The position numbers and the translations under genes were made by a program. Below are positions 2,333 to 21,409 of a stretch of DNA of 25,156 bases, piece by piece; position 1 is the first letter of the stretch, and every line of letters starts with the position of its first letter. Below the pieces are notes generated by a model. It saw only the letters and a list, made by a program, of their open reading frames with translations. It searched no databases and was not told the origin of the DNA. Origin of the DNA: Methanosaeta sp. PtaB.Bin039 (GTDB taxonomy: Archaea > Halobacteriota > Methanosarcinia > Methanotrichales > Methanotrichaceae); contig MVQI01000024.1 in the NCBI GenBank assembly GCA_002067795.1, forward strand, positions 1 through 25,156, written 5' to 3'.

Positions 2333-2340
2333 CTTAAATA
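2333..2340 (+). promoter_or_regulatory. Candidate archaeal TATA box for the binding-protein/ABC operon
   Basis: CTTAAATA is preceded by an A-rich stretch (AACAAAAA) in the AT-rich divergent intergenic region 1985..2432. It lies about 95 nt upstream of the ATG at 2433, which has its own GGTGAG Shine-Dalgarno site 8 nt upstream. Confidence 0.3.
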
Positions 2341-2432
2341 TTTCAATACTATTAACATCTAAATCGTAATTGATCATGAATCAGTGTGATGTGACGTATT
2401 GACAACCATCTGAGACAATTGGTGAGCTATAT

Positions 2433-3572
2433 ATGCATAAATCCTGTTTGCGAAATAAAACTCTGGCGGTAATATTGGTATGCTCTTTATTTGTTATTGG
2501 CATAACGGCAACGGCATCTTATCCTAAGGTCTTTACCGATACTCAAGGCCGGTATGTAATCCTGGATAAGCCCATCGAGAGGATAATCACCCGATCCCCG
2601 GACGAGGCCAGGATAGTCATAGCCCTGGGCTGCGGAGACAAGCTTGTTGCAGGAGAGCAGGCCACGAAATCCTGCCTGTGTCCCATGACATTCGGCAACA
2701 CCGAAGAAGGATGCAAGAGGTGTTTCGATGACATTATCGACGGACGCATGGCCTCCCTGCCAGAGATAAGCACCAGGTACGACATATATTTCGAGAAGAT
2801 AGCCCAGCTCAAGCCGGACCTGATCTTCTGCGGAAATCTGAAGGACGCAGAGGCCTTTGAGGACAAGATCGGCTGCCCAGTTGTTGTGCTGGGTGGACAG
2901 GGATGGAACTTAGGGGATGAGGGGTACTTCGAGAGCATACGCGTGGCTGGCCAGGCTCTGGATGCAGAAGATGAGGCAGATGATCTGATTGACTTTGTAA
3001 AGGGCAAGATAGACCTGGTAAAGACGAAAACGGATAACATGAAGCCCGAAGACAAGCCGCGTGTCTACTTTGCCTCACGCGGCGCAGGAGCGGGCTTTTA
3101 CGATCCGAAAGAGGGAAGGGATTTCACCAGAACCGAGCCCAAATACGACCCCCTGAAGATCGCCGGAGGCATCAACGTGGCCTCTGAGATCAATGGCTCG
3201 ACAGTCAATGTCGCCCTTGAGCAGATCATTGCCTGGAATCCGGACTTCGTATTCATATCGAACAGCGCAGCTAAAAACAGCACCGCATTGAATTTCATCA
3301 AGGGCAGTCCTGAGCTCTCCTCGGTCAATGCCATCAAGAACGGAGATGTGTACAACTGCTTCTATCCACACTGCCGCGGCACGCCTCCGGACAGAAACCT
3401 CATCAATATGATGTACATGGCCAAGCTGCTGCATCCCACAGAGTTCAGAGATCTGGACCTTGAGAAGGAGGGCAATGAGATATTCAAGGCCTTCTTGGGG
3501 GTTGACGGCGTCTTTTCCGAATACGCCGACTACCTCATCTGGCCCAGAGAGTACCTGGACAGCCTGAAGTAG
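2433..3572 (+). CDS. ABC transporter substrate-binding protein, FecB/BtuF-like (iron-chelate/corrinoid class), membrane-anchored or secreted
   Basis: The 379-aa ORF has an N-terminal hydrophobic anchor (LAVILVCSLFVIGITATA). Its layout is typical of class III periplasmic binding proteins (RIITRSPDEARIVIALGCGDKLVAG..., LKPDLIF, WNPDFVFIS). It is the first gene of a run that also holds a FecCD permease and a FecE-type ATPase. Confidence 0.85.
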   Translation: MHKSCLRNKTLAVILVCSLFVIGITATASYPKVFTDTQGRYVILDKPIERIITRSPDEARIVIALGCGDKLVAGEQATKSCLCPMTFGNTEEGCKRCFDDIIDGRMASLPEISTRYDIYFEKIAQLKPDLIFCGNLKDAEAFEDKIGCPVVVLGGQGWNLGDEGYFESIRVAGQALDAEDEADDLIDFVKGKIDLVKTKTDNMKPEDKPRVYFASRGAGAGFYDPKEGRDFTRTEPKYDPLKIAGGINVASEINGSTVNVALEQIIAWNPDFVFISNSAAKNSTALNFIKGSPELSSVNAIKNGDVYNCFYPHCRGTPPDRNLINMMYMAKLLHPTEFRDLDLEKEGNEIFKAFLGVDGVFSEYADYLIWPREYLDSLK

Positions 3573-3575
3573 TGA

Positions 3576-4412
3576 TTGATCATGCCAGGAATCGTAAACT
3601 GGGACGAGCTTTGGAAGGCCACACATTTCAGGGGCTTTCACCACCATGATCCAGACCTGATCTCCTACTGGGACAGAAAGGCAGAGCTGTTCAATAGAAG
3701 GGTCATGAGGCACAGGGAGAGGGCTGAAATCCAGGTGGCAAGTCTTGGGCTGCGTTCCTACGAGACCGTCCTTGATGTGGGTGCTGGAACCGGAAGGCTG
3801 GCGATCCCCATGTCCAAAGTGGCCAGTAGCGTTACAGCTCTCGACCAATCAGGAGGCATGCTGGCCTGCCTTAAGGAAAATATGCGCGCTGATGGGATAG
3901 AAAATATCCGGTGCATCCAGAAGAGCTGGCAGGATTTGGCGGTAGACGAGATAGAGCAGCATGACGTCGTCATATCCTCAAACTCCCTGGGTGTCTATGA
4001 ATTGAGAGAGGCGCTGGCCAAGATGGATTCGCTGGCCAAGAGCAGGGCTTACATATTCATCTTCACCGATCATAAGAGGGACGACGGTTTTTCGGATTTC
4101 TTAAGGAGAGATGTGGCGGTTAAGAATGCGCCCGGACCTGCGGATTATCTGGTGATCTACAATCTGCTCGCCGAGATGGGCATATACGCCGACATAGAGA
4201 TGGTTGACTGGCTGTACAAAGAGCGTTACTCCAGCCTCGACGAGGCAGCGTCCGAATGGATGCAGATGCATGACATCGCAGCCGATAAGGAGCCTGATCT
4301 GCGGGAATTCCTCTCTTTAAGGCTGGTGGGGGACGAGTCCGGAGTGTGCATGGTCCGCCACTACAAATCGGCCACGATCTCCTGGCGGAAAGGCAAGCTG
4401 GTTCGTGACTAG
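3576..4412 (+). CDS. Class I SAM-dependent methyltransferase (paralogue of 1133..1984), embedded in the ABC operon
   Basis: The 278-aa ORF carries the SAM motif I VLDVGAGTGRLAIP and the conserved blocks it shares with 1133..1984. It starts 4 nt after the binding-protein stop, at TTG 3576 or ATG 3582. Confidence 0.8.
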   Translation: MIMPGIVNWDELWKATHFRGFHHHDPDLISYWDRKAELFNRRVMRHRERAEIQVASLGLRSYETVLDVGAGTGRLAIPMSKVASSVTALDQSGGMLACLKENMRADGIENIRCIQKSWQDLAVDEIEQHDVVISSNSLGVYELREALAKMDSLAKSRAYIFIFTDHKRDDGFSDFLRRDVAVKNAPGPADYLVIYNLLAEMGIYADIEMVDWLYKERYSSLDEAASEWMQMHDIAADKEPDLREFLSLRLVGDESGVCMVRHYKSATISWRKGKLVRD

Positions 4413-4422
4413 GTGGGCGTGA

Positions 4423-5202
4423 ATGGTCTCCATAACCATTTTGGCCGGATCTGTCCTTTTGCTGGGTCTTTTGGCAGCATCGATAAGGGTGGTGAGGCAG
4501 TATGAACGGGCGGTCGTATTTCGTTTGGGAAAGCTGAAAGCCGAGAGAGGTCCTGGCCTCTTCCCACTCGTTCCGCTGGCGGATAATATGGTGCGGGTCG
4601 ACATGAGGGTGAGAGAGCTCGACGTCCCCAAGCAGACCGTGATCTCCAGAGACAATGTCACTCTTGAGGTGGACGCGGTCATATACTACAAGGTGACGAG
4701 CGCCTCGAAAGCCATTGTAGAGGTAGAGGACTTTGAGGCGGCCACGCTTCTGCTGGCCCAGACCACACTTCGTGATATCCTTGGACAAAACGAGCTGGAT
4801 ACTATACTATCAGACCGAGACGACCTCAACCAGAGGATCAAGGAGATATTGGATTTCACAACGGAGCCCTGGGGAATGCATGTGGTGATGGTGACAATGA
4901 GAGACGTCTCACTGCCCGAGAATATGCTGCGTGCCATCGCCCGCCAGGCGGAAGCAGAGCGCGAGAAAAGGGCACGCATAATACTGGCAGAAGGAGAGCT
5001 TCAGGCATCCAGGATGATGAACGAGGCTGCTGATATGTACGAGAACAAGCCCAGTGCTTTGAAGCTGCGTGAGTTTCAGACCTTAAATGAGATCGCCAAG
5101 GAGAAGAACCTCATCGTGGTATCGACTGGAGAGAGAGACGGCCATTGGGCATCAGACCTCCCATGTCTCATGGGTCTGGCCAGGGCGGCTGCTGATAAAT
5201 GA
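4423..5202 (+). CDS. SPFH/band-7 (stomatin/prohibitin-like) membrane protein
   Basis: The 259-aa ORF has an N-terminal TM segment followed by the SPFH core (VRQYERAVVFRLGKL, VISRDNVTLEVDAVIYYKV, TTLRDILGQNELDTILSDRD). A coiled-coil tail follows (AIARQAEAEREKRARIILAEGELQAS). Its stop overlaps the permease start in an ATGA. Confidence 0.85.
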   Translation: MVSITILAGSVLLLGLLAASIRVVRQYERAVVFRLGKLKAERGPGLFPLVPLADNMVRVDMRVRELDVPKQTVISRDNVTLEVDAVIYYKVTSASKAIVEVEDFEAATLLLAQTTLRDILGQNELDTILSDRDDLNQRIKEILDFTTEPWGMHVVMVTMRDVSLPENMLRAIARQAEAEREKRARIILAEGELQASRMMNEAADMYENKPSALKLREFQTLNEIAKEKNLIVVSTGERDGHWASDLPCLMGLARAAADK

Positions 5203-6329
5203 TGAGCGGAAAGGCGCTATTCTTCCGGGCCAAGACACGTGCAGAAATGTCCCAATCCAGGAGAGCTGGCAAGAGAAGCGCTATGCAGACGGCTCACGAT
5301 AGATTCAAGCTCGTCAGGATCTTCTTCGTGCTGGGCATCGCCGCCCTGCTGGTCTTTTTAACAGGCTTAATCATAACGCTTGGACCACTGGAGATTTCCG
5401 TGGCCGATGCCTATTCTGCTCTTCTGGCCCGCTTTTTGCCAGATCACTTCCAGTCGGAGGCGCTTACATCACGAGTCGTCTGGAATATCCGGTTTCCCCG
5501 CATACTGGGCGGGATGATGGCTGGATTTGGACTTGGGATATGCGGATGCGTCATGCAGGCAGTCCTCAAAAATCCGCTGGCCAGCCCCTTTACGCTGGGA
5601 ATCACCGCCGGCGCCCAGTTTGGCATATCAATGGCAGCCGTCATTGGATTTTCGGTTCTTGGCGGGCCTTATTTCATAATCGGCAATGCCTTCCTCTGCG
5701 CCCTGCTCTGCTCATTCTTCATCATAGGCCTGGCTGCCATCAAGGGCGCAACCTCTGAGAACCTGGTCTTAGCAGGCATAGCTGTCAACTACTTCTTCTC
5801 AGCCATCAGCCAGCTTCTCAAGTATTTCGCCAGCGATGAGCAGCTTCGACTCATGACCAACTGGGGAATGGGCGACCTGGCCGCCTTCTCCTGGGCGAAC
5901 TCCCAGCTGCTCCTTGCGGTATTCGTCATATGCGTTCCGCTGCTCATGTCCAAATGCTGGGACCTGAACATCATGACCGCCGGCGACGATACCGCCAAGA
6001 GCATCGGGGTAAATGCAGAGAATACCCGACTGTTCATCATGGCAACAAGCAGCCTGCTTGTGGCAGTTATCGTCTGCTTCATGGGAATTATCGCCTTCGT
6101 TGGCCTTGTGGCTCCTCATATGGCACGCATGGTGATCGGCGGAGATCACAGGTTTCTGATACCGGCATCCGGAGTGCTGGGCGCACTTGTCCTCATGTCG
6201 GCTGATGCCGTGGGAATGAATCTGATGGCACCTACCATCATCCCCACAGGGATCATGACATCCATTGTGGGCGTCCCATTCTTCATGTACCTCATGATGA
6301 AGGGAAAGAGAAAGGAGTTCTGGACATGA
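5199..6329 (+). CDS. FecCD/BtuC-family ABC transporter permease
   Basis: The 376-aa polytopic membrane ORF matches FecCD-family sequence character (RFPRILGGMMAGFGLGICGCVMQAVLKNPLASPFTLGITAGA..., IIPTGIMTSIVGVPFFMYLM). Its start overlaps the upstream stop. Internal ATGs at 5247 and 5283 are alternative starts. Confidence 0.9.
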   Translation: MMSGKALFFRAKTRAEMSQSRRAGKRSAMQTAHDRFKLVRIFFVLGIAALLVFLTGLIITLGPLEISVADAYSALLARFLPDHFQSEALTSRVVWNIRFPRILGGMMAGFGLGICGCVMQAVLKNPLASPFTLGITAGAQFGISMAAVIGFSVLGGPYFIIGNAFLCALLCSFFIIGLAAIKGATSENLVLAGIAVNYFFSAISQLLKYFASDEQLRLMTNWGMGDLAAFSWANSQLLLAVFVICVPLLMSKCWDLNIMTAGDDTAKSIGVNAENTRLFIMATSSLLVAVIVCFMGIIAFVGLVAPHMARMVIGGDHRFLIPASGVLGALVLMSADAVGMNLMAPTIIPTGIMTSIVGVPFFMYLMMKGKRKEFWT

Positions 6330-7114
6330 TGATCAAGCTGCAGGCCAAAGAGATAGTCTTCGGCTACGACAGCAATCCCGTTCTGGACAGCGTGAGCTTC
6401 GAGATAGCCCCCTCAAAGCTTGTGACAATCGTCGGGCCCAATGGTTCTGGCAAATCGACCCTGATCAAGTGCATAAACAAAATAGTGTCTCCGCAGGGAG
6501 GAAGCATCCTGATCGACCGAAGAGAGGTAGCGAAGATGACCAGGATGGAGGTAGCCAGATATCTCTCCTATGTCCCGCAAAGCTCGGTGCGCATCTTTCC
6601 CACCAATGTCTTCGACACGATCCTGATGGGCAGAAGGCCCCATATCGGTTGGCTGGGCAGCGAGCGGGATGAAGAGAAGGTCTGGGATGTCTTGCAGCTA
6701 TTGAATATCGAGAGGCTTGCCATGAACAACTTCAGCGAGCTTTCAGGCGGCCAGCAGCAGAAGGTGCTCATTGCCAGAGCGCTTGTTCAGGAAGCGGAGG
6801 TGATGCTTCTTGACGAGCCCACCAGCAACCTGGATATCTGGCACCAGCTGGACGTCATGAACATAATTCGGGACGTCGTCAAGAAGAAGGAGATCACTGC
6901 AATTATGGCCTTGCACGACCTCAACCTGGCGTCATACTACTCGGATCGCATCATAATGATGAAGAGGGGAAAGATCGTGGCAGTCGGCGATCCGCACTCA
7001 GTGATCACAGAGGAGAACATAGCTTCCGTATATCGGGTGCAAGCGGCAGTGCGAAAGCTATCCGATAGGCCGATGATCATGCCACTTCGGCAGATACGTG
7101 GATCCAAGGCCTAA
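6326..7114 (+). CDS. ABC transporter ATP-binding protein (FecE/BtuD-like)
   Basis: The 262-aa ORF has Walker A GPNGSGKST, the signature LSGGQQQKVLIARAL, Walker B MLLDEPTSNLD and an H-loop (ALHD). Its start overlaps the permease stop in an ATGA. Confidence 0.9.
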   Translation: MMIKLQAKEIVFGYDSNPVLDSVSFEIAPSKLVTIVGPNGSGKSTLIKCINKIVSPQGGSILIDRREVAKMTRMEVARYLSYVPQSSVRIFPTNVFDTILMGRRPHIGWLGSERDEEKVWDVLQLLNIERLAMNNFSELSGGQQQKVLIARALVQEAEVMLLDEPTSNLDIWHQLDVMNIIRDVVKKKEITAIMALHDLNLASYYSDRIIMMKRGKIVAVGDPHSVITEENIASVYRVQAAVRKLSDRPMIMPLRQIRGSKA

Positions 7115-7205
7115 AGATCAATCGCAAGCTACTAGCCCGCGGCCGTCCAGCAAAAAAAGTTGCCAGGAAGCACCAATCTGGCACTGTCCCACTGACCCAA
7201 TTTTT

Positions 7206-8306
7206 CTACATCACGCCTGCTACCTTGAGCGGATGTACGCCTGCGCTCTGGAGCAAAGCCAGCCTCTCTGAGTCCACTTCGAACTCCTTTATGACCGAAA
7301 CAACGAGCTGTGGCTGGTTCCAGTACTCCATGAGCCGCACATCCTCGACCAGCTTGGCAGCCCACGACGGCCCCTTGAAATCGGCTGATCCGTCCAGCTC
7401 CCTGGCCCTTGTCCAGTTGAACCCAAGGACCAACGCATCACCCTGCTTGGCAGTCTGGTTCCAGCGAATGTAGATGCCTGCCACATCGCTCTGGTTGTAC
7501 CTGGCTCTCAGAGCGCTCTTCTCCGCGTCGGAGAGGGCCATAACGAACATGCTGCTCTTGCCTGGTGTTGCATCCCATCGCATCTGCAATAAGTCGTCCT
7601 TGCACCACTGGGGACAGGCGATCACTCTATAGCTCTGTGCAGAGATATCCTCGATGGGCAGCTTGCCTTCCACGAACTTGGCGAGCATATAGCCGCTTGT
7701 CACTCCTGGGCAGAGATGATCGTGAAACGCAGTGGCCTGCAGGAAGTCAAACGAGGACCCAGGCTGCGCCCAGACATTGGACATGCCCACAAGGGTGAAC
7801 TCGTTTCCACCAAAGGCTCCCTGGAAGGTGGCGTTGCCCTCATCGGTGTGGTTCAGCATGTAGTCCAGGTCCACGTTAGCCCTCGTGATCCTGGTGAATG
7901 CCTGGTCGGCAGGAAGAGAGGCGAGCTTTTGCGCAGACATGCCCACAGCCCGGTTGTCTGCCTGAAGGAAGATCGCCTCCCCCGTCTCCTTATCGAAGAA
8001 GTAGAACCACAGCGGCTTCCAGTATGGCCGCAGCACCTGAAGCAGGTTGCCGTCGCCGACGCTGCACCCGCTGGCCTCTGTCAGGCCTTTTAAGGCAGCC
8101 TGGGTGGTCTGGCCCTCCACGATGGCATGACCGGCATTTGTGAGTGCCAGTATGTCTTTGTCACCGCTCTGAAATCCCAGTTGAGCCATGGCCTCCTTTG
8201 CAGCCTTTGATCCAATTTCCTCCATAGCAGAGCCCTGCGCATGGACTGCGCATGGCATCGTGGCCAGCAGCAGCGCCAAAGCCACCAACCCAATCGCTTT
8301 AAACAT
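7206..8306 (-). CDS. Secreted FmdE/FwdE-family protein
   Basis: The ORF contains the FmdE hallmark FHDHLCPGVTSGYML. An upstream segment (ILALTNAGHA...ASGCSVGDGNLLQV) also looks FmdE-like. The signal peptide MFKAIGLVALALLLATMPCAVHA begins at ATG 8306, which has a GAGGT 8 nt upstream. The track ORF extends to 8330. Confidence 0.75.
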   Translation of the reverse strand: MFKAIGLVALALLLATMPCAVHAQGSAMEEIGSKAAKEAMAQLGFQSGDKDILALTNAGHAIVEGQTTQAALKGLTEASGCSVGDGNLLQVLRPYWKPLWFYFFDKETGEAIFLQADNRAVGMSAQKLASLPADQAFTRITRANVDLDYMLNHTDEGNATFQGAFGGNEFTLVGMSNVWAQPGSSFDFLQATAFHDHLCPGVTSGYMLAKFVEGKLPIEDISAQSYRVIACPQWCKDDLLQMRWDATPGKSSMFVMALSDAEKSALRARYNQSDVAGIYIRWNQTAKQGDALVLGFNWTRARELDGSADFKGPSWAAKLVEDVRLMEYWNQPQLVVSVIKEFEVDSERLALLQSAGVHPLKVAGVM

Positions 8307-8663
8307 CTTGATACCTCTCATACAAGCCAAAATCTCTTCGTCTATGACAGATGGCTTAACCGACCTCGTGATATCGGTTCAGTGCCAATATCCGGGCCTT
8401 GGCCAATACGATAATTGAAGCTGCGCCCAACATTTATGAATGTTTCTATATTTAGTAGCACAAAGAATTAATATACGAGAATTGTCTGTGACTGGAGCAG
8501 ATGAAACAGCTGCCAAGATCACATCTGAAATAAGAAATAGCATAGCTGCAATTCGATTCAGATATGTGTCTTCGTTTTCGCCGGGCTGCAAAATCGCCTG
8601 GCGAAAAAAAAGAGACAGAAGATCCCTGCTGTTGACTGGGGAAATGGGAGATGCAAGAGATCG

Positions 8664-10247: not shown

Positions 10248-11204
10248 ATGCCAAACCTCAACGTGGTGGTCCTGGGTCCAGCCGGCTACTCCAAGGAGCT
10301 GGGAAAGACGGGAACCACTAGCGATATGACCTTTTACAATCTGAAAAGGGGCGAGGATACCGTCACCTTCATAGAGCCCACCCGCTACCCGGAACGTCTG
10401 GCACCCCTCTTTTACGCAGCAACTCTTGCCAGGATGGCGGTTTTGGTGGTGGAGAAGATCGATCCGGCATTCGGAGAGTGCGTCCTGATGCTCGACTGCC
10501 TGGGCATATCCTCCGGCTATCTGATCCTCCGCAACTTCATCCAGAAGGAGCAGGTCTTGCCGCTCATCAAGGGAACGGTCGCAGAGGGCTATGAGCTGCT
10601 GGCAGACGATCCCATTGTCCTGCGTGAGCGCCTGCTGGAAGAGGCGACAAAGGAGAATCCGGCCTTAGACGCTCCCGTTGGCAGCATGCCTGTGGACCAC
10701 TTCTTCAGCGTCCGCGGCGTCGGCACGGTTGTCCTTGGTGCTGTCACCCGGGGCAGCTTAAAGAAGCACGACTCGTTGCGAATCCTGCCGGGCGAAAAGA
10801 CCGCCCAGATCCGCTCGATTCAGAAGCACGACCAGGATTTCGATGCGGCTGGTCAGGGTGAGAGGACCGGACTTGCGCTGAAGGGAATAGAGGTGGACGA
10901 CCTTGACCGCGGCGTTGTGCTCACCACTGATCCGTCCATCAAGGTCAGCAGCTCTGTGCAGGCAAAAGCGCGGCTGGTAAAATACTGGCCATCGCCGCTG
11001 AAGGAAGGCATGGTGCTGCACCTGGGCCACTGGATGCAGTTCGTGCCTGCCAGGGTCGAGTCGGCCAGCGGAGACGACTGGCACAGGCCACTTCTTCAGC
11101 TATCCCTCGACAAGCCACTCGTGCATCCGCCAGGCGCCTCTGGAGTGCTCACCTATCCGGAAGGAGGCAAGCTTCGAGTCGTGGGGACGGTAGAGCTGCC
11201 CTGA
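10248..11204 (+). CDS. EF-Tu/SelB-like protein with a degenerate G domain and an intact EF-Tu domain 2
   Basis: The 318-aa ORF has a middle region typical of the EF-Tu domain 2 beta-barrel (FSVRGVGTVVLGAVTRGSLKKHDSLRILPGEKTAQIRSIQKHDQDFDAAGQGERTGLALKGIEVDDLDRG). The N-terminal ~130 aa align positionally with a G domain. The P-loop reads GPAGYSKELGK instead of GHVDHGK(S/T). I can find no DxxG or NKxD motif. Confidence 0.7.
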   Translation: MPNLNVVVLGPAGYSKELGKTGTTSDMTFYNLKRGEDTVTFIEPTRYPERLAPLFYAATLARMAVLVVEKIDPAFGECVLMLDCLGISSGYLILRNFIQKEQVLPLIKGTVAEGYELLADDPIVLRERLLEEATKENPALDAPVGSMPVDHFFSVRGVGTVVLGAVTRGSLKKHDSLRILPGEKTAQIRSIQKHDQDFDAAGQGERTGLALKGIEVDDLDRGVVLTTDPSIKVSSSVQAKARLVKYWPSPLKEGMVLHLGHWMQFVPARVESASGDDWHRPLLQLSLDKPLVHPPGASGVLTYPEGGKLRVVGTVELP

Positions 11205-11256
11205 GAGGATCGGGGAACTCTAATCCCTCAGGGCCAGCCCCAAACACCACGCACTT

Positions 11257-11290
11257 ACACGCTTTTTCGGAAAAACCTGAAAAAGCGTGT
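11257..11290. terminator. Perfect 11-bp inverted repeat between convergent genes, a candidate bidirectional terminator
   Basis: ACACGCTTTTT (11257..11267), a 12-nt loop, then AAAAAGCGTGT (11280..11290). Because of the palindrome, each strand presents a T5 run. It lies between the stop at 11204 (+) and the stop at 11441 (-). Confidence 0.45.
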
Positions 11291-11440
11291 TTCTCATGGG
11301 GCAGGTCTGAAAAGCCTGTCAGATTTTGCCAGGGAACCGAAAGATCGGATAAGAAAAGGAAAGGTCGAAGAGGATTGCGATAGGGAATTTGGTCCGGCCG
11401 AACACCTGCGGCCGAAACCGTCCTGTTGCCCATCTCCGTC

Positions 11441-12283
11441 TCACTGGGTCAGCCCTGCCCTCCACTTCAGCATCCTCTCCTCAACCACGTAGCGGAAGGC
11501 CCTGTCGATGAACAGGCCCAGCAATCCCAGGACTATCATGTAGAGGAGCACGTACTCCATCTTGTGCAGGTAGTAGTACGACCAGATGCGGTAGCCCAGC
11601 CCGCTGGTGCTGACACCGAACATCTCTGCAGCTACAAGGCACATCCAGGATATGCCCATGGCGATCCTTACGCCTCCGGCTATTGAGGGCAGGGCGTACG
11701 GGAAAGCCACGTAGCGGATAAGGTCTCGATTGCTTGTAGCACCCAGCACCTTGGCCGACTCCACGAATACCCGAGGCAGGCTTCTAAATCCCACATAGGT
11801 GTTGATCAGTATGGGAAAGACCGCTCCGACAAATACGATGAACCCGGCGGACTCGTGAGTCAGGCCGAACCAGACGATGGCGAACGGTATCCAGGCCAGC
11901 GGAGGTATGGGCCGTATCACCTCCACCATGGGGTCGATCAGCCGGTCCATGTGCCTAGACCATCCCATTCCCATGCCCAGTGGAAGGGCGAGGAGCACTC
12001 CGGCTCCCATGCCCAACCCGAAGTGAAGCAGGCTTATTGGCAGATCCTGAAATATCAGGGTCTTCCAGCTTGCCTCGAGGGCGACGAGGACCTGCAGAAA
12101 GCTGGGCAGGATCAGGGTGTCGCCCACGAGCATTGCCACGGCCTGCCATACAAGGACCAGGCTGGCAAGGGAGAGGGCGGAAATCCACTCCCTGCGAAGC
12201 GTCTTCGCCCAGTCGCCGTTCATCTTCGACTCCTGCCTGAGCCTGGTATCGCGATCCAGCTCATCAGGCCTTCGCCCTGTCAA
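11441..12283 (-). CDS. ABC transporter permease, NitT/TauT (SsuC/TauC-like) family
   Basis: The 280-aa ORF has six hydrophobic segments and sequence character of binding-protein-dependent permeases (VIRPIPPLAWIPFAIVWFG, ESAKVLGATSNRDLIRYVAFPYALPSI). ATG 12223 is an alternative start with a GGAG upstream. The track start at 12283 overlaps the upstream gene by 20 nt. Confidence 0.85.
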   Translation of the reverse strand: MTGRRPDELDRDTRLRQESKMNGDWAKTLRREWISALSLASLVLVWQAVAMLVGDTLILPSFLQVLVALEASWKTLIFQDLPISLLHFGLGMGAGVLLALPLGMGMGWSRHMDRLIDPMVEVIRPIPPLAWIPFAIVWFGLTHESAGFIVFVGAVFPILINTYVGFRSLPRVFVESAKVLGATSNRDLIRYVAFPYALPSIAGGVRIAMGISWMCLVAAEMFGVSTSGLGYRIWSYYYLHKMEYVLLYMIVLGLLGLFIDRAFRYVVEERMLKWRAGLTQ

Positions 12284-13241
12284 AGAAGCTGGTGTCGAAG
12301 AGCTCCTCCTCAGACAGCTCCTTTTGGGTGTAGTTCATCTGATAGTCCACCTTGGCATACTCCAGGGTAGAGGGGATCTGGATGTGGGGATCGCTCACCC
12401 ACTCGCCGTCCCAGTTCTTGACGGAGTGCATGACCGTCTTGAGATCCTGCTTGGTGCGGTTGGCGTAGATCTCCGCAGCCTCCTCCGGATGGGAGTTAAC
12501 ATACTCGGTTGCCTTCAGGTGGGTCTTGACGATCTGAGCCACCAGCTCCGGATTGTCCCGGATCAGCCGGCCGCTGACAACAAGGCTGCAGCAGGCGTGG
12601 TTGGGCCACATCTGGCCGGAGGGCAGCGCCTCCTGTCCTTTGCCCTCCAGGATGACTATCGACGGCGACGGTGCAGGCAGGAAGACCCCATCGACCTTGC
12701 CGGCGGAGATGGCAGTAACTGCATCTCCCGGCCCCATGGGCAGGATCCTTACCTTGTCGATGTCAACTCCGTTTTCCTGCAGCCACTTCTTCATCACAGT
12801 GTCCTGGATTGACCCAGGCGGAAATGTGCCGATGCTCATCCCTTCAAGTGAGGACGGTCCCAGATAGGCTTTATCTGGCCTCAGGACAAGGTCGGAGCCG
12901 TTGGTATTGACGGCGGCCACGATCTTGGCATCCAGGCCGCTGGCAATTGCCGAGATCGGCGGGGCTGTTCCTACGTAGGCCACATCAAGGCTTCCGGCCA
13001 GCATGGCCTGCATCTCAGGCGGACCGGAGGGAAATTCGAACTCCTTTATCTCGGTAATTCCGAAGGGCTTCAAGTCCTCCAGCCACCATCCTTTCTCCAT
13101 GGCCACCATCTCGGCGATCTGGTGGGTGCTGGGCTGGTAACCTATGTTCAATGTGGTCACCTCGGCCTTCTTCTCCGAGATGCAACCCAGCGTAGCAACC
13201 ACTGCCAGGGCAACAACAGCAATAATTATCTGGCTTCTCAA
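12264..13241 (-). CDS. ABC transporter substrate-binding (lipo)protein, NMT1/THI5-SsuA/TauA-like
   Basis: The 325-aa ORF has a TTG start preceded by GGGGTGAT at 5-nt spacing. Its signal peptide ends in a lipobox-like TLGC. The body is typical of NitT/TauT-family binding proteins (LNIGYQPSTHQ..., GSLDVAYVGTAPPISA, IVAAVNTNGSDLV). Confidence 0.85.
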   Translation of the reverse strand: MRSQIIIAVVALAVVATLGCISEKKAEVTTLNIGYQPSTHQIAEMVAMEKGWWLEDLKPFGITEIKEFEFPSGPPEMQAMLAGSLDVAYVGTAPPISAIASGLDAKIVAAVNTNGSDLVLRPDKAYLGPSSLEGMSIGTFPPGSIQDTVMKKWLQENGVDIDKVRILPMGPGDAVTAISAGKVDGVFLPAPSPSIVILEGKGQEALPSGQMWPNHACCSLVVSGRLIRDNPELVAQIVKTHLKATEYVNSHPEEAAEIYANRTKQDLKTVMHSVKNWDGEWVSDPHIQIPSTLEYAKVDYQMNYTQKELSEEELFDTSFFDRAKA

Positions 13242-13301
13242 ATGGCATCACCCCGATGATACTTACGGATCGGATGAATCCATGACTCTGCTCGGTCGGT
13301 T

Positions 13302-13310
13302 TGTATAAAG
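13302..13310 (-). promoter_or_regulatory. Candidate TATA box for the binding-protein/permease operon
   Basis: The minus strand reads CTTTATACA, about 65 nt upstream of the TTG at 13241. The predicted leader would include the GGGGTGAT Shine-Dalgarno site. Confidence 0.3.
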
Positions 13311-13675
13311 TTCTTTCCCGCCAGGCAGCCTATTGTTCCTTTTCGGGCAAATCATCTCTTTGATTTGGACAAAAATATCTCGTATAGAGGTGCAAGCGGC
13401 ATAGATGGTCGCGAAAGGCGATCTGCAGCAAAGCAGATATCCTAAGAGAGCGAACTTGGGGCGAGGCCAGTGGATGCGATTGAGTCATTTTAGGATATGG
13501 CCTTCCGAGGAGACCAGGAGAGAACAGGATGCCTGAAATCCCAAAGGAAAAGAGACGTCTTATCCAAGGACCATGCAGCTCCTGCCAGAAAACTGTTCGA
13601 CGAGACGCAATTTTCGGCAAGATTAGATCCATTTCGCAGGCCAGGGATTCGCATCTACAAGGTTGCAGGTGAATA

Positions 13676-14932
13676 ATGAGATCGGCTTTCGAGATCTCGG
13701 AGAAGATAAGAAGAGGCCACGGAGTGGTGATGACAGTCGGCGAGCTCCAGCATCTGGCCGAGAGCGGAGACGGAGAGGGGATCGAGGAGGTTGACGTCAT
13801 AACCACAGCTACCCGTGCGGTCATGAGCGGAACTTATGCCGTTCTATCCTTTCCGGCAGCCTGTCCGGGCGCGTTCATCAGGGCCAGGTCTGCCAGGCTC
13901 AACGGCGTCTTGGCCAATGTGGGCCCATGCCCCAACGAGCGGCTGGGTGTGCTCGATCTGGTGGTGTTCGGCACCGGACACAGGGATGCCAGATATGGCG
14001 GCGGGCATCTATTCCGGGACCTGGTTGAGGGAAAAGGGGTGACAGTGGAGATCGAGACGTCAGATGGCCGAATCCTGAAGGACGAGACCTCCCTTGCACG
14101 GATGCAGTCCGCGCGGCTATTCGGAAGCCGCCACTGCTTCAAGAACTACTCCGCCTTCGTCAATCCGGGATGCCAGGATGTAAGGACCATATTTCATGCG
14201 GTCGGCTTTCCGCCGAACCTGGCTGCAGCCACCTTCTCCGGATGCGGCCGCTACAGCCCGCTGCAGTGCGATCCTCTTTTAGAGGGCATCGGCGCAGGCA
14301 GCCGAATACTGATGAACGGCGCAACAGGCATGGTAATTGGGCCCGGCACACGCAGCAGCAAACAGCGCCCGAACCTTAGCGGATTTGCCGATATGGCTGG
14401 AATGGACCCGCAGCTGATGGGCGGCTTCATCACGTCGGCAGGCCCGGAATGCATCTGCTCCTGGGCTGTGGCAATCCCTGTTGTCAGCCCATCCATTTTG
14501 CAGGCTGCCCTGACCCCTGACCGGGATATCCACATGCCTGTGATGGACGTCGTAGAGCGCAGGCCACTGGGAGAGGCAGACTACGGCCAGGTCTGGGACG
14601 ATGTGGACCTGGCGGTGCGATTCTCACCTCAGGCGTGCCGAGGCTGCCAGGCCTGCCAGGCAGAGGAGAGCTGTCCCACCCAGGCGATTGGCCGGGATAA
14701 AGGGATAAGGATTGACCGCAGCCTGTGCTTCAACTGTGGGCTTTGTTCTACGATCTGTCCGGACGTCTTCGCCGCCAGGCTGGGATCGATCGGGCTTGCA
14801 GGAAGACAGGTGCCGGTGGCCATGCGCCAGTCTGACCGGGCCAGGGCCCAGAAGATGGCTGCTGACCTGAAACGGCGAATACTCGACGGCTCTTTCCAGA
14901 TAACTCCGATGATCGATGCTATCCGGTTCTAG
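13676..14932 (+). CDS. comF: DUF39/COG1900-domain protein with a C-terminal 2x[4Fe-4S] ferredoxin domain; candidate coenzyme M synthase (ComF/MJ1681-type)
   Basis: The 418-aa ORF has AGGTGA 5 nt upstream of its ATG. The N-terminal ~330 aa read as the DUF39 family (ISEKIRRGHGVVMTVGEL..., VDVITTATRAVMSG, KNYSAFVNPG, GSRILMNGATGMVIGPGTRS). The C-terminus has two Cys clusters, CRGCQACQAEESCP and CFNCGLCSTICP. It is adjacent and convergent to comE and comD. The functional call comes from family knowledge plus context, not from sequence alone. Confidence 0.7.
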   Translation: MRSAFEISEKIRRGHGVVMTVGELQHLAESGDGEGIEEVDVITTATRAVMSGTYAVLSFPAACPGAFIRARSARLNGVLANVGPCPNERLGVLDLVVFGTGHRDARYGGGHLFRDLVEGKGVTVEIETSDGRILKDETSLARMQSARLFGSRHCFKNYSAFVNPGCQDVRTIFHAVGFPPNLAAATFSGCGRYSPLQCDPLLEGIGAGSRILMNGATGMVIGPGTRSSKQRPNLSGFADMAGMDPQLMGGFITSAGPECICSWAVAIPVVSPSILQAALTPDRDIHMPVMDVVERRPLGEADYGQVWDDVDLAVRFSPQACRGCQACQAEESCPTQAIGRDKGIRIDRSLCFNCGLCSTICPDVFAARLGSIGLAGRQVPVAMRQSDRARAQKMAADLKRRILDGSFQITPMIDAIRF

Positions 14933-15449
14933 TGGGGAGACAAGAGGTGAACCGGTCCCGGATCTGAAGAGGGGAGAGTGGGATGATCGGTACTTCGGCG
15001 TTTCCAGGCTCTACCCGGACAACCAGGACGCCGGATCGGTCAAGGCTGCGTCGCAGTTCCTCCGAAGTGGCGGCCTGGCCGACCTCCTCCACGCCGGCTG
15101 CCCTTGCCATCTGGACGAGATCGGTCTTCTGGGCTGTGCAGGTCAGCTGGCAGCCTGTGGAGCCGTAAGAGCAGTTATCAAGGATTATCAGCAGGTAGCC
15201 AGAAGGCGCATGGTGAGCGATCGTGGCCAGGGTGCCCAGGTTCATGAGGACTGAGCCGTCGCCGTCGATGACGAAGACCCGGCGTCCGCTGGCCAGCGCA
15301 AGCCCGAGGCCGATTGAAGAGGCGAGCCCCATCGAGCCCAGCATGTAGAAGTTCTCAGGCCGGTCGTAAACAGCGTAAAGCTCCCTGCTGGGATAGCCGA
15401 TGTTGCAGACGAGCAGGGCTTTCTGCCTCACAGCCTGCCCCGCCACCAC
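14919..15449 (-). CDS. comE: Sulfopyruvate decarboxylase beta subunit (TPP-binding)
   Basis: The 176-aa ORF has the thiamine-diphosphate motif VIDGDGSVLMNLG...IILDN and the conserved NIGYPSRELY and FYMLGSMGLASSIGLGLA blocks. The track start is GTG 15449. The frame stays open upstream to 15485 (see findings). Confidence 0.85.
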   Translation of the reverse strand: MVAGQAVRQKALLVCNIGYPSRELYAVYDRPENFYMLGSMGLASSIGLGLALASGRRVFVIDGDGSVLMNLGTLATIAHHAPSGYLLIILDNCSYGSTGCQLTCTAQKTDLVQMARAAGVEEVGQAATSEELRRSLDRSGVLVVRVEPGNAEVPIIPLSPLQIRDRFTSCLPTRTG

Positions 15450-15493: not shown

Positions 15494-16072
15494 TCAGATC
15501 CCCTTCCAGAAGTCCAGGTCGAGGAGCACTGCCGCCAGAGTACCCCTTTCCCATGCTGCTGCAGCGGCATGGGCCACGAACGACCTGGCCTGCTGCGGCC
15601 GTGGTGTCCAGCTTGGTATGCCCAGAGCATCCAGCAAGGGCGCGGTCAGCCGGCCCATCGGGATCTGGCCGGAGATCTTCTCCCCACTGGACCCCCTGTG
15701 GCTTATTATCATCAGCAGGGGCAGCCCGTAGAGCTGATCCAGCGAGGCAAGGGCGTTGATGCTATTTCCCAGGCCGGAGTTTTGCATCAGAAGTGCAGGA
15801 CGGAGGCCTCCCAGGAAAGCTCCGGCGCAGATCCCTACCCCCTCCTCCTCCCTGGTGACCGGGACGAAGCGTATCTCAGGATCTGCCTCGACCATAGTCA
15901 GCAGCTCCTGTAGGTTGATGCAGGGGACGCTGGCCGCAAAGTCGATCCCGCCATCCTTCATCCCCATGAAGATCCAATGGCTTGGGCTCGCAGGATGCTG
16001 GCCAAAAGTGGCCGAATGTCCATCAGAATCGGCTTGCCTGGGCGTTGGCGGCTTGATGTCCATCACCTTCAT
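15494..16072 (-). CDS. comD: Sulfopyruvate decarboxylase alpha subunit
   Basis: The 192-aa ORF resembles a TPP-enzyme PYR domain (GIDFAASVPCINL, VTREEEGVGICAGAFLGG, LLMQNSGLGNSINALASL, PLLMIISHRG). It lies immediately upstream of comE on the same strand. A GGAGA lies 13 nt upstream of the ATG. Confidence 0.85.
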   Translation of the reverse strand: MKVMDIKPPTPRQADSDGHSATFGQHPASPSHWIFMGMKDGGIDFAASVPCINLQELLTMVEADPEIRFVPVTREEEGVGICAGAFLGGLRPALLMQNSGLGNSINALASLDQLYGLPLLMIISHRGSSGEKISGQIPMGRLTAPLLDALGIPSWTPRPQQARSFVAHAAAAAWERGTLAAVLLDLDFWKGI

Positions 16073-17991: not shown

Positions 17992-18651
17992 TTACCAAAC
18001 CTTCAGGTCTATCCCCTCAATCCTCACCATCCGACCCTCGGAGTGCACAACCACTCCGGAATGCACCTTCTGCATCATGCAGTGCTCAGGCAGGAAACGG
18101 ACGGTCTGGCCCACAGACGGGATACTGCCACGGACCACCAGGCCTTCAAATGCTGCCACCATGCAGACGCCAAGGTCGTTGTATTCGGCCTGCTGTCCCA
18201 GCAGGTGCAGCGGGCCTACCATATGAACGGTCAGAATGCCGTGCTCCCATCCAAGCACCCGGGCGAAATGGGTCACCGGACAACCAAGTGGGCGATAGCG
18301 GATAAGGTCGCCTGGGCAAAATGTGAGACTTCGATCGAATGGAAATAGGTCCTCACGACAGGAGGGCTCGCCAGGCAGCGGCCCCAATGAGAAGTCAGCC
18401 AAAAGGCCGTCTATAACTCCCCGAACAGTCTCCTCCGACGCGGCCCTATTGCCGGAGAGGACTTCTCGGATGCCTTCTGCATGTCCTGCAAAGCGCTCCT
18501 GCCCAAGATAGGGACACTGCCCCGTATCGCCGCCACCGCTTGCCAGCAGCTGAGCGAAATTTTGGCAGCTCCTCTGGCCGCACTCTCCGCAGTTGAATCC
18601 GGGAAGCAGCCGCTCCACCTGTTCTGATAGGTTCAAGGCCTTGGTCCTCAC
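17992..18651 (-). CDS. Fe-S cluster domain protein (RnfB/CdhE-N-terminal-type 4Fe-4S motif) with an uncharacterised C-terminal domain
   Basis: The 219-aa ORF has the N-terminal motif C-x2-C-x4-C-x16-C ([31 protein letters not shown]). I do not recognise the C-terminal ~140 aa; it appears beta-rich. The GTG start overlaps the upstream stop in a GTGA. Confidence 0.7.
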
Positions 18652-19346
18652 TCACCGGAGTATTCCATAAATCCGTCCATATGCCTGAGAACACCCCGGT
18701 GATATCGCTTGGAGACTCGCAGCTCGCCGCTGCAAAGAGTGCAGACGGCCAGCGGCGGATTGTGGCGGAGCATCATATTCTCTGCGGCAGGCGGAAGCGC
18801 CCGGATTATCTCTGCCAGATCGCTCCCGCCCTTCCCGGTAAGTCCATTGGCCTCAACTATCCTGCAATGCGGATTGGCCTCGAGCACCCTCTCTCTGAAA
18901 ACCTCGCGCTCGGCCTGCGATACCAGATCGCATTTGGTCGTGACCACCACGTCTGCGGTGGTCAGAAGCGGTCCAACCTTGAGCGGGGTGTTGGGTCCGG
19001 TCGTAACATCGATCACGCAGACGGCCAGGCAGTGGTCGGGATAGGGGGCGCACCTGAGACACAGCCCGGCAGTCTCGTTGAGCAGGACATCTGCATCCTG
19101 CTTCTTTGCCCATTCGAGCATCTCGTCCACGTTATATATGGAGAAGTGATCGGGACACATGTCCCTGGAGAGCGCCACATGTACCGGAATTCCCAGGCGG
19201 CCGATGCGCTTGTCGTCCTCAGTCCACAGGCAGTCCACCTTTACAACTGCTGGCCGGCTGCCGGATCCCTCAAGACACCTGGCCGCATGCATCAGGACCG
19301 ATGTCTTGCCTGATCCGGGGGTGCCAGCTATCACCACAAGCTTCAC
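18648..19346 (-). CDS. G3E-family P-loop GTPase (HypB/UreG/CobW-like), Cys-rich
   Basis: The 232-aa ORF has Walker [10 protein letters not shown], a switch region [12 protein letters not shown] (compare the ExxG-plus-Cys metal sites of HypB and COG0523) and the guanine-specificity motif TKCD. It also has a C-terminal CTLC. The GTG start overlaps the upstream stop in a GTGA. Confidence 0.75.
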
Positions 19347-20104
19347 AGGGCCGCCTCCGCGGCGCTGACGGTCTCACCCCTGCGAATGGCCTCCCGCAGG
19401 TTGATCAGCCACCGGTCCACACGGCTCAAGCTGTTACAGACCTTTTGCTCCTCCTCGCTTGTCTGGATTACCCGGACCATATTTCCCTTCTTCATGACCA
19501 CACGCCGAGAGGTCATAAGGGCCAGGACCGGATCATGGGTGACCACCACCACGATCTTGCCCTCGCCTGCCAGGAGCTTGAGAGCCTCTTGCTTCTTGAT
19601 CCCGGCATTTTCTATCTCGTCGATGAGGACAATTGGAGAGTCGCTGATAACCGCTATATCGGCTGTCATCAGGGCCCGCGACTGGCCTCCGCTCAGAGCG
19701 GTCAGGTGGTGCTCCGGGTGTATGGGCTCGCCGGTCAGGGTGTTGGCGAGATCTATCACCTTTGCGATCAGGTTCTCCTCCCTACCACGGCTCTTTGCAT
19801 GCATTGCCAGGAAGTCCGAGACCGTCATATCTGCCAGGAAATGCATATTCTGGGAGAGCTGAGCCACAGGCTTTCTGCGCGGATCTGCCCTGACCTCTGC
19901 ATCTGGAGGCTGGCCATCGATGAGCACCTGGCGGCGGGATTCCGTATCTCTTTGGGCAAACTGCTCCAGGTCGGATATCAGCGTGCTCTTCCCTGACCCG
20001 GTTGGCCCAACGATTCCGACGATCTCGCCGCTATCGATATGTAGTGTCTCTATGTGATCCGCACATCCATCTTTGTCCACGCCACCCAGAATTGTAAGCC
20101 TCAA
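19343..20104 (-). CDS. Atypical soluble ABC-type ATPase with no adjacent permease
   Basis: The 253-aa ORF has Walker [10 protein letters not shown], the signature LSGGQSRAL, Walker B and D-loop [12 protein letters not shown] (not the transporter-type DEPTxxLD) and an H-loop VTHD. It has a ~40-aa C-terminal extension. The TTG start lies 6 nt after the cysteate synthase stop, with an AGGAG inside that gene's 3' end. Confidence 0.8.
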
Positions 20105-20110
20105 TTTTCG

Positions 20111-21409
20111 TCAACTCCTGATGAACTCCAGTACCTGCTTCTCCAGGTCGTCGGCCGGATGCCCCGGCCTGACCTTCATCTGGCAGGGAAGGATCGACGG
20201 CCCTAGTTCTTCCCAGGACCGCTTGACACCGCCTCCTGTGATGTTTAGGAGGACCATCTCTTCCTTTCTTACCGCCCCATCCTCCATTGCTTTCAGAAGC
20301 GCTGCAACTGCCACTGCTGGCGCCGGGAGGATGTCTATGCCTTCGCTGGACTCAAACAGCTGCCTGGCAGCTTCAGCCTCATCGTTGGCGACCCCCAAAA
20401 CAGCTCCGCTCGTCTCACGCAGGGCCTGCTCAACCCCCCCAGGAATGGCGTAGGGTGGATTTCTGTTGAACAGGACATCGTCATACATCTCATCCGGGCA
20501 GCCAAGCCCTTTCCATATCTCCGATAATCCTGACGGGGACTCGCCGCCAGGACCCGTCCATAGCCTATGAATAGGCGCACATGGCAGGTTTTGGGCCAGA
20601 TGCAGCCTGGGGATATTTGATCCGAAGCGGCCGTCTCCCGCCAGCCGCAATGCCGCCTCCCACGCAGCGATACCGCCGGTGCCGCTGCCCACTGCCTGGA
20701 AGTAATGATCTGGGATCACACCTGCGGTTGCGGCTGCCTCCAGCATCACTGTGCCCATCCCGTCACGCCGGGCGATGTTCCTGGCGCCGCCTTCCGGAAG
20801 GAATCCGGGGCGGCTGGCCAGACGGTCGGCCGCCTGTATGGCGTCAAGATAGTCGCCTTCTACTCCTGCCAGGCAGATCCGCCCGGGCTCCACCGTGGTC
20901 CACAGCCTGTGCAGAGAGGACGTCGGTACAAAAAGGACAACGGGTCGACCGGTCAGCGAGGCGGTCTGGGCGAAGGCCCTGGCTGTATTTCCTGCCGATG
21001 CCACAACCAGTACAGGGGCATTGTGCCCTCCCGGCACTCCGGCGACGGGCCTGGCAGTCTCGGATAGGCGCTGCATCGTGGGAGCTGCTTCCAGCTCCTT
21101 GAAGCTGCCGGTGACCATCGATGCTCCCATCTCTGGCCAAAAACCGGAGAAGCTTATAAAGAGCCTCTGAAGGCCTATCTCCCTGGCCAGTCCCTGGCTC
21201 TGATAGCACACCGATCCGGCGCCAGTTCGCATATCAGGGCTCTTTACCGGAAGCCAGGCAAGATGACGCCATACACCCGGCAGGTCCGCTATCTCCAGCC
21301 GCTTCTGGGAATAGACCGCACGCGGCAGCCCAGGATCCAGCCGACAGCTAGTGGCCAGATCATGGAGGACGGAGCCGCAGCCCTGGCAGCATACCTTGTA
21401 ATCTCCCAT
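20111..21409 (-). CDS. Threonine-synthase-family PLP enzyme; called as cysteate synthase from context
   Basis: The 432-aa ORF has an N-terminal Cys pair (VCCQGCG), the PLP-lysine motif TGSFKE and the ASAGNTARAF block typical of the ThrC fold type II family. GAGAGGT lies 9 nt upstream of the ATG. Linkage to comD, comE and a ComF-type gene matches the cysteate route of CoM synthesis in Methanosarcinales. By eye, sequence alone cannot separate cysteate synthase from ThrC. Confidence 0.75.
   Translation of the reverse strand: MGDYKVCCQGCGSVLHDLATSCRLDPGLPRAVYSQKRLEIADLPGVWRHLAWLPVKSPDMRTGAGSVCYQSQGLAREIGLQRLFISFSGFWPEMGASMVTGSFKELEAAPTMQRLSETARPVAGVPGGHNAPVLVVASAGNTARAFAQTASLTGRPVVLFVPTSSLHRLWTTVEPGRICLAGVEGDYLDAIQAADRLASRPGFLPEGGARNIARRDGMGTVMLEAAATAGVIPDHYFQAVGSGTGGIAAWEAALRLAGDGRFGSNIPRLHLAQNLPCAPIHRLWTGPGGESPSGLSEIWKGLGCPDEMYDDVLFNRNPPYAIPGGVEQALRETSGAVLGVANDEAEAARQLFESSEGIDILPAPAVAVAALLKAMEDGAVRKEEMVLLNITGGGVKRSWEELGPSILPCQMKVRPGHPADDLEKQVLEFIRS

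Follow-up and report, generated by a model that had tools for sequence, protein, structure and literature searches.

Which ATPase drives an ATP-binding cassette (ABC) importer whose operon holds genes for a binding protein and a permease only, and what would such an importer carry? The question is raised by an ssuA-like and an ssuC-like gene at positions 11441-13241 of a 25,156-nucleotide (nt) contig of the archaeon Methanosaeta sp. PtaB.Bin039 (Methanotrichaceae; assembly GCA_002067795.1, contig MVQI01000024.1), which was analysed at its full length and is called the window below. Judged from sequence profiles and a structure model, the pair is a NitT/TauT-class type I ABC importer, made up of an SsuA-like binding protein and a permease of the BPD_transp_1 family. 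We regard it as probable, with room left for doubt, that the pair salvages coenzyme M (CoM) or a close C2-sulfonate with the help of an ATPase encoded at an unlinked locus.

Family and fold of the two proteins

The ssuA-like gene (12264-13241, minus strand) encodes a lipoprotein-type substrate-binding protein of 325 amino acids (aa), and the ssuC-like gene (11441-12223, minus strand) a permease of 260 aa; both were recognised by Pfam, NCBIfam and Protein Data Bank (PDB) matches. The binding protein, which is 99% identical to a protein of the metagenome-assembled genome (MAG) Methanosaeta sp. PtaU1.Bin028, scored 132.7 bits against Pfam NMT1_2 and passed the NCBIfam model SsuA_fam (TIGR01728) marginally, with 164.6 bits for a cut-off of 163.5. 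Its closest solved relatives by sequence were SsuA of Xanthomonas citri (E 2.4e-13) and of Escherichia coli (E 5.6e-10), and the matches to TauA, NrtA and ThiY were far weaker. An AlphaFold2 (AF2) model of the protein reached a predicted local distance difference test (pLDDT) score of 86.7, and in a Foldseek comparison SsuA structures took ranks 1-5, TauA ranks 6-7, and ThiY together with a thiamin-binding protein ranks 11-12. An earlier note on this DNA, made from the letters alone, had assigned the pair to the NitT/TauT family and had called for a model to be compared with SsuA, TauA and ThiY structures; the profile matches and the Foldseek ranking agree with the assignment and place the protein with SsuA.

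The same note had held a thiamine-precursor role to be equally compatible with the sequence. The pair would then be a ThiXYZ-type importer of hydroxymethylpyrimidine or formylaminopyrimidine (HMP/FAMP) that serves the thiamine pyrophosphate (TPP)-dependent enzyme ComDE. A Pfam match to NMT1/THI5 at 61 bits fits such a role, and the ThiY-type structures 3IX1 and 4NMY are detectable relatives. However, 3IX1 was matched at E 1.2e-5 as against 2.4e-13 for SsuA, ThiY was also the weaker of the two by fold, no TPP riboswitch or other Rfam match was obtained, and the gene linkage described below reaches beyond a TPP enzyme to ComF, cysteate synthase and comA/comB contexts. The two roles are therefore not on an equal footing, and thiamine-precursor import is very unlikely.

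SsuA of X. citri holds the sulfonate group of its ligand through Gln36, Gly68, Gly86 and Ser141 (PMC3839906). In a HMMER alignment, Gln36, Gly73 and Gly91 of the binding protein correspond to the first three, and for Ser141 a Ser is found one position off (S144/I145). By analogy with bacterial SsuA, a sulfonate group would be held by a Gln36/Gly73/Gly91/Ser144 dipole.

The permease matched Pfam BPD_transp_1 at 80.4 bits. Its top NCBIfam match was SaoP (160 bits, cut-off 295), followed by NtrB and TauC, and its closest solved relatives were NrtB and CmpB (E about 4e-31). The EAA loop, or coupling helix, at which an ATPase docks (VESAKVLGATSNRDLIRYVAFPYALP; 11681-11764, minus strand) is intact and conserved, with the residues VESAKVLG...FPYALP. 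The binding lipoprotein and a homodimeric channel of the SsuC-like subunit would together form a type I NitT/TauT importer.

Absence of a linked ATPase gene across the Methanotrichaceae

The stop codon of the permease gene (11441) lies 236 nt from that of a convergent EF-Tu-like gene (10248-11204, plus strand), a gap too short for an ATPase gene, in which a hairpin was read as a perfect 12-nt inverted repeat (11257-11290, no strand assigned). When the window was searched by tblastn with a canonical SsuB-type ATPase, two nucleotide-binding domains only were found. One is a FecE-type ATPase (6326-7114) that has a BtuC-type permease and a binding protein of its own; the other is an atypical ABC ATPase (19343-20104, minus strand). 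The earlier note had pointed out both the operon without an ATPase gene and the single unpaired ATPase of the window, and in both respects it was right.

One genome per GTDB species was scanned for the binding protein, and the 59 loci obtained were all searched with the window proteins. Among these, 29 Methanotrichaceae species genomes carried both the binding protein and the permease, and none of the 29 had an ABC ATPase after the permease. Since the arrangement recurs in 29 species-representative genomes, the missing ATPase is not a matter of chance or an assembly feature of one contig. What is peculiar is the gene order; the transporter type is known, and the mechanism is not new. Across the family the two proteins are intact, with identities of 64-78%, and the pair is therefore maintained by selection. 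Were the pair a decaying, non-functional remnant, the absent ATPase gene would be explained by its loss; the intact ORFs (open reading frames) of the 29 species and the conservation of promoter, lipobox, EAA loop and motif residues speak against decay, and we give this explanation hardly any credence.

Orthologous pairs with an ATPase in other archaea

Binding proteins of 52-58% identity and permeases of 50-59% identity adjoin a canonical NitT/TauT ATPase in five lineages: the anaerobic methanotrophic archaea (ANME) groups ANME-1 (L051) and ANME-2c (L158), a Methanosarcinales MAG (L159), Methanoculleus (L055) and Methanofastidiosum (L054, L056, L057 and L061). From the ATPase beside these orthologous pairs it follows that the ancestor was a normal three-component importer, the linkage of which was lost in the Methanotrichaceae. 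Against NCBIfam, the partner ATPase of ANME-1 gave SaoA as its top match (294 bits, cut-off 360), then NtrCD and TauB. The identity of the window permease to the ATPase-linked orthologues is 0.46-0.68 in the EAA region and 0.50-0.56 over the whole protein, a conservation that would be expected if the permease still docks an SsuB-like ATPase. ATP hydrolysis would be supplied by an SsuB-type ATPase from an unlinked locus, in which case the Methanotrichaceae would have lost gene linkage, not function.

The Methanosarcinales locus (L159, 2474-7615) has an order of its own: binding protein, permease, an 88-aa ORF, a radical-SAM-like protein, a second binding protein and the ATPase. Two binding proteins and an enzyme thus lie inside this transporter operon.

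Linkage to coenzyme M genes

The binding-protein gene is divergent from the gene for ComF (methanogenesis marker 16, CoM synthase; 13676-14932, plus strand; TIGR03287, 483.5 bits), the function of which has been demonstrated in Methanosarcina acetivorans (PMC12068725). The two genes stand head-to-head across a 434-nt intergenic region, and the back-to-back placement given in the earlier note is corrected accordingly. Beyond ComF lie comE (14919-15449, minus strand; TIGR03846, 225.9 bits) and comD (15494-16072, minus strand; TIGR03845, 199.3 bits), which encode sulfopyruvate decarboxylase. The pair was divergent from marker 16 in 21 of the 29 Methanotrichaceae species genomes, and ComD-ComE were also visible in 19 of those 21.

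The linkage was also found in an unrelated lineage. In ANME-1 GoMg1 (L051), comA (TIGR03849, 314.7 bits), comB, a fused comDE and then the full transporter are encoded on one strand, comA-comB representing the other CoM pathway. The apparent single operon (L051, 1-7000) continues past the SsuB-type ATPase with a 247-aa membrane protein, for which an uncharacterised NCBIfam family (PRK10621) gave the only match, a weak one, and with a major facilitator superfamily (MFS) transporter; CoM synthesis and uptake form one unit there. Methanofastidiosum genomes carry mcrABG, but their score is zero for each of comA-E, for cysteate synthase, for marker 16 and for COG1900 (S1 Table of PMC12068725). Despite this lack of CoM synthesis genes, the orthologous transporter is retained together with its ATPase.

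A further connection is provided by a 172-aa HTH_3 regulator (21670-22188, plus strand), which is divergent from the cysteate synthase gene of the window and has an uncharacterised C-terminal domain and no NCBIfam match. Among the fetched loci, 39 (near-identical contigs included) have a homologue divergent from cysteate synthase; in Methanofastidiosum (44-45% identity) and in the Methanosarcinales MAG (48%, E 7e-53), the divergent neighbour of the homologue is the orthologous pair of binding protein and permease. Judged by these contexts, it is a candidate CoM-responsive regulator.

We favour CoM as the substrate because of the pairing with ComF and ComDE, the comA-comB-comDE linkage in ANME-1, the retention in Methanofastidiosum and the shared HTH_3 regulator. 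The substrate would most likely be CoM (2-mercaptoethanesulfonate) or a close C2-sulfonate analogue, salvaged alongside de novo synthesis, and the pair would be expressed together with the cysteate synthase operon as part of a CoM-responsive gene set. Under CoM starvation of M. acetivorans, ssuA and ssuC were co-induced with cs (the cysteate synthase gene) and comDE, and ssuB was not (PMC12068725). The suggestion in the earlier note that a sulfonate such as CoM is imported for salvage has become the best-supported function, through the CoM-gene linkage in two unrelated lineages and the Methanofastidiosum case, and further through the regulator family, the SsuA-like sulfonate ligands and the published induction of Methanosarcina ssuA and ssuC.

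Another sulfonate (taurine, isethionate, sulfoacetaldehyde, cysteate or sulfoacetate) might be imported instead, to serve as a source of sulfur or as a precursor of CoM. The SsuA/TauA-like fold and ligand residues would suit these compounds, the pockets of bacterial SsuA are broad (PMC3839906), and the adjoining ComDE and ComF could use sulfopyruvate or sulfoacetaldehyde-type intermediates. Methanofastidiosum, however, keeps the orthologue and the regulator although it has none of the enzymes (ComDE, ComF and cysteate synthase) that could use a precursor, and no ssuD/ssuE or other desulfonation enzymes were seen among the annotated neighbours, which are ComF, ComDE and the EF-Tu-like gene, or at related loci. 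We consider import of another sulfonate unlikely, if still a serious alternative.

Several observations weigh against a CoM importer with an unlinked ATPase. Because the CoM pathway of Methanothrix is complete, import could serve salvage only. Three species (L012-L014) have the pair away from CoM genes, flanked by an M20 peptidase and an adenine deaminase and likewise without an ATPase. No SsuB-type ATPase was found in the Methanothrix loci fetched, about 110 in number. The likeness to the M. acetivorans transporter SsuABC (MA0063-MA0065) is one of transporter class and proposed role, and orphan paralogues of the binding protein, described below, hint at more than one ligand. A profile search with four SsuB-type ATPases from the orthologous loci gave ANME-1, Methanofastidiosum and Methanomicrobiales proteins as the best 120 listed, with no Methanothrix among the matches listed. 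A search of the literature by topic, on Methanothrix NitT/TauT ATPases and on MA0063-65, turned up nothing useful.

Among the methane producers that consume acetate, Methanothrix is one of the most important. CoM analogues such as 2-bromoethanesulfonate (BES) are standard inhibitors of methanogenesis, and their entry depends on CoM uptake systems. The pair next to ComF is a concrete candidate for the entry of BES and CoM in Methanothrix, and the related transporter is a candidate for the same in Methanofastidiosum, which is without CoM synthesis genes. The finding raises a testable question, namely which ATPase powers the Methanothrix importer.

The atypical ATPase and the cysteate synthase operon

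The earlier note had proposed that the ATPase might be borrowed from 6 kb away, from the atypical gene at 19343-20104. Under this proposal, the genes of one importer would be distributed between two operons within the CoM gene set. This ATPase is the sole unpaired one in the window, and it has the standard ABC motifs (Walker A, Q-loop Gln, LSGGQ, Walker B and H-loop). It also lies in the cysteate synthase operon, next to a regulator whose family adjoins the transporter in other lineages, and a canonical ATPase is absent from every Methanothrix locus fetched.

The gene order tells a different story. Cysteate synthase (20111-21409, minus strand) ends 6 nt upstream of the atypical ATPase, the stop of which overlaps the start of a CobW/HypB-like GTPase gene (18648-19346, minus strand) by 4 nt; the GTPase gene in turn overlaps that of an FeS-domain protein (17992-18651, minus strand) by 4 nt. 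This order was kept in 80 of 80 metagenomic loci wherever the flanks were present, and it also occurs on identical contigs and on a 3.26-Mb Methanotrichaceae contig; outside the window, the operon was noted at L076, L077 and L078-L157. In a complete Methanolobus genome, the module of ATPase, GTPase and FeS protein stands between cs and comD-comE. From the fixed gene order we conclude that the atypical ATPase belongs to the cysteate synthase operon. An SsuA/SsuC-type binding protein or permease was found near it in none of the 80 metagenomic loci.

The protein itself also speaks against a role in the importer. The atypical ATPase is 68-78% identical between Methanothrix, Methanolobus and Methanosalsum, whereas its identity to the SsuB-type ATPases of orthologous permeases is only about 26%. 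Its top solved matches were MacB and LolD, at 59 bits only, and the usual EP..ALD segment after Walker B is replaced. Where orthologous permeases have near-identical EAA loops, the ATPases that serve them are of the canonical SsuB/SaoA-like kind. Borrowing of the atypical ATPase is thus improbable in our estimate, and the fixed operon in the 80 loci and Methanolobus and the low identity to SsuB-type proteins together count against the proposal. A bolder form of the same idea, in which the Methanotrichaceae importer has no SsuB-type ATPase whatever and is driven by the cysteate synthase-operon ATPase, shared with the CobW-like GTPase and a two-site Fe-S/Cys-His protein, is doubtful to a like degree. 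If it were true, a single ATP-driven module would serve both the uptake of CoM and the first step of its synthesis, and the H-x-C-C binding protein treated in the next section would define a thiol-recognising SsuA subfamily.

Most likely, the atypical ATPase is a soluble ABC-type ATPase that works with the GTPase and the FeS protein. The three accessory genes of the operon have no NCBIfam equivalog; they could encode factors of the CoM pathway that are still uncharacterised, with a role in, for instance, the delivery of metal or sulfur. The N-terminal 4-Cys domain of the FeS-domain protein resembles those of the CoFeSP large subunit and RnfB, and it was the sole region matched in a profile search against the PDB. 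The C-terminal domain (about 150 aa) has the invariant residues C98, C124, C191, H128, H149 and H197 and no solved relative by sequence. A single-sequence AF2 model of the protein had a pLDDT of 36 and was discarded. The module of cysteate synthase, ATPase, GTPase and FeS protein is a more unusual feature than the transporter pair.

Two variants of the surrounding region were noted. In L070 and L071 (about 10400-11370), which carry an identical ATPase, a phage-type integrase after the cysteate synthase operon replaces the ComDE/ComF/transporter block and marks a rearrangement breakpoint at about position 17900 of the window. In L079 and L081, a canonical-looking ATPase and permease lie upstream of cysteate synthase; the ORF translations identified them as a ProVWX/OpuA-type osmoprotectant system beside ectoine genes, and this candidate was rejected.

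Conserved cysteine and histidine residues

The binding protein carries the motif MWP[NDG]HACC, which about 60 archaeal orthologues and paralogues share without exception and which reads FATV in relatives of 24% identity. In the AF2 model, H215-A-C217-C218 (12588-12599, minus strand, located by orthologue alignment) stands at the start of strand 215-223. An H-x-C-C motif is also typical of a large, so far uncharacterised branch of the SsuA_fam representatives, for which it provides a marker. The permease has a single conserved cysteine, Cys195 (11639-11641, minus strand), in the transmembrane (TM) helix motif G-I-S-W-M-C-L-V-A-A-E-M-F-G. Alignment of the orthologues showed it to be invariant in the archaeal ones, with G, M or R at its place in distant relatives and Ala in NrtB/CmpB. 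As a hypothesis only, His215-x-Cys217-Cys218 and Cys195 of the permease could recognise the thiol end of CoM.

These residues bear on a further explanation, in which the pair would import a soft-metal, organometallic or inorganic sulfur ligand in the manner of the SAO system SaoX/SaoP/SaoA. In favour of this, the permease has SaoP as its top NCBIfam match, and the partner ATPase of ANME-1 has SaoA; a vicinal CC is common to the binding protein and SaoX, and a conserved Cys is present in the permease. All scores, however, were far under the equivalog cut-offs (SaoX 78.2 for 300, SaoP 160.4 for 295, and SaoA 294 for 360 in ANME-1), homologues of SaoB, SaoL, SaoT, SaoE and SaoC were not seen among the annotated neighbours, and H-x-C-C is widespread in SsuA_fam. 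In a motif alignment, the permease Cys falls about four residues before the position equivalent to MetI Met163, where SaoP carries selenocysteine (Sec), and would thus be a different site. Because of this offset of about one helical turn, the two were not equated, and the idea that the Cys occupies the SaoP selenocysteine gate site was dropped. An SAO-like function is, in our view, quite improbable.

Orphan paralogues of the binding protein, 55-67% identical and with the same H-A-C-C motif, occur in Methanothrix and in ANME-2/Methanosarcinales (L002-L004, L033, L034, L037, L039, L041, L042 and L045; L044, L046-L050, L052, L053 and L059); neither a permease nor an ATPase lies within 10 kb of them. 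The paralogue of L002 lies near genes for ThiS-like, O-acetylhomoserine sulfhydrylase-like, CBS-containing alpha/beta-hydrolase and rhodanese proteins. In two representative proteins, P0363 (759 aa) and P0410 (1133 aa), a binding domain of the H-A-C-C type is fused to a much longer protein.

Expression signals and other features of the window

The binding-protein gene has the start codon TTG at 13241, and a Shine-Dalgarno-like sequence, read as GGGGTGAT (13247-13254, minus strand), stands 5 nt before it. The translation begins with a signal peptide and lipobox (residues 1-20, ..ATLGC20; 13182-13241, minus strand), the LGC motif of which is kept in orthologues. The permease ORF spans 11441-12283 on the minus strand, and its likely start is the ATG at 12223, chosen by a gene caller on an identical contig; if begun at the alternative TTG at 12283, the gene would share 20 nt with ssuA. 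The two-gene operon with its TTG start and Shine-Dalgarno site, as read in the earlier note, agrees with the sequence and with the Pfam and NCBIfam matches.

An archaeal promoter (B recognition element and TATA box, BRE/TATA; GGGAAAGAACTTTATACAAACCGA) was located at 13296-13319 (minus strand), a related element being present across the Methanotrichaceae. The element GGAAACTGCTTTATACCGATC occurs in 22 of 24 distinct intergenic regions of the family, about 46-125 nt (mostly about 55 nt) before the start of the binding-protein gene; most species have this form, and the window has GGGAAAGAACTTTATACAAACCGA, a more diverged copy. The extended transporter promoter motif had no match at up to 3 mismatches upstream of the other CoM genes in the window. 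A scan for sigma-70 promoters and intrinsic terminators, models that are not meaningful for an archaeon, gave background counts alone.

The EF-Tu-like gene downstream encodes 318 aa, of which EF-Tu domain 2 alone was recognised, with weak SelB/EF-1alpha similarity over residues 130-260 or so; the protein is 70% identical in L005-L007. In these three loci, which represent one Methanothrix lineage, a gene of the bile acid:Na+ symporter family (SBF-like) lies between the permease and the EF-Tu-like gene (about 12132-13056). Elsewhere in the window, the region 1133-8330 holds a complete FecB/BtuC/FecE-type ABC system (2433-3572, 5199-6329 and 6326-7114). Read from the translations, two methyltransferase-like ORFs (1133-1984 and 3576-4412), a band-7-like ORF (4423-5202) and a secreted ORF with an HDHLCPG motif (7206-8330) seem to be interspersed with it.

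Comparison with known systems

SsuABC of M. acetivorans (MA0063-MA0065) has been described as a CoM-specific ABC transporter (PMC12068725), and a review names ssuABC as the CoM transporter genes of nearly all methanogens (PMC10658910). The Methanothrix pair resembles it in being of the NitT/TauT class, from a close relative (class Methanosarcinia), with the same proposed role. The arrangement differs: the M. acetivorans ATPase gene is adjacent, and the cluster lies far from cs, comDE and marker 16, whereas the Methanothrix pair abuts ComF and its ATPase is unlinked. A representative search and cluster look-up of the binding protein gave unnamed metagenomic proteins as the nearest clusters, and MA0065 was not identified among them as a Methanosarcina orthologue.

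Bacterial SsuABC, as in E. coli and with the X. citri SsuA structures among others (PDB 2X26, 3E4R), shares the fold; in the sequence alignment, three of the four sulfonate-coordinating positions are identical and the fourth is shifted by one. Identity is about 20%, the pocket residue Trp185 of X. citri SsuA is replaced, the invariant H-x-C-C is extra in the Methanothrix protein, and at its locus there is no ssuD/ssuE monooxygenase and no adjacent ssuB. Methanothrix is a strict anaerobe, in which desulfonation by an oxygenase is impossible.

Among named NCBIfam families, the SAO transporter SaoX/SaoP/SaoA (10.1101/2022.07.06.499078) comes nearest to the permease and to the ANME-1 ATPase, and it has in common with the pair a CC motif in the binding protein and a Cys or Sec in the permease. 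Unlike it, the Methanothrix pair has no selenocysteine, no MerB-like lyase and no other SAO genes, and its context is one of CoM genes and not organometallic. The cyanobacterial systems NrtBCD and CmpBCD (PDB 8W9M, 9U9Z) provide the closest solved permeases, with the same TM core and EAA loop; they differ in their NrtA/CmpA-type binding proteins, in their fused regulatory ATPase subunits and in having Ala for the conserved Cys.

For the supply of an ATPase from elsewhere, the parallels are MsiK of Streptomyces and MsmX of Bacillus, ATPases from another locus that serve operons with a binding protein and permease only. Those are sugar (CUT1) importers, and we know of no NitT/TauT system in archaea for which a shared ATPase has been shown. 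Set beside these systems, the Methanotrichaceae pair is a variation on a known transporter, with an ATPase that is unlinked family-wide.

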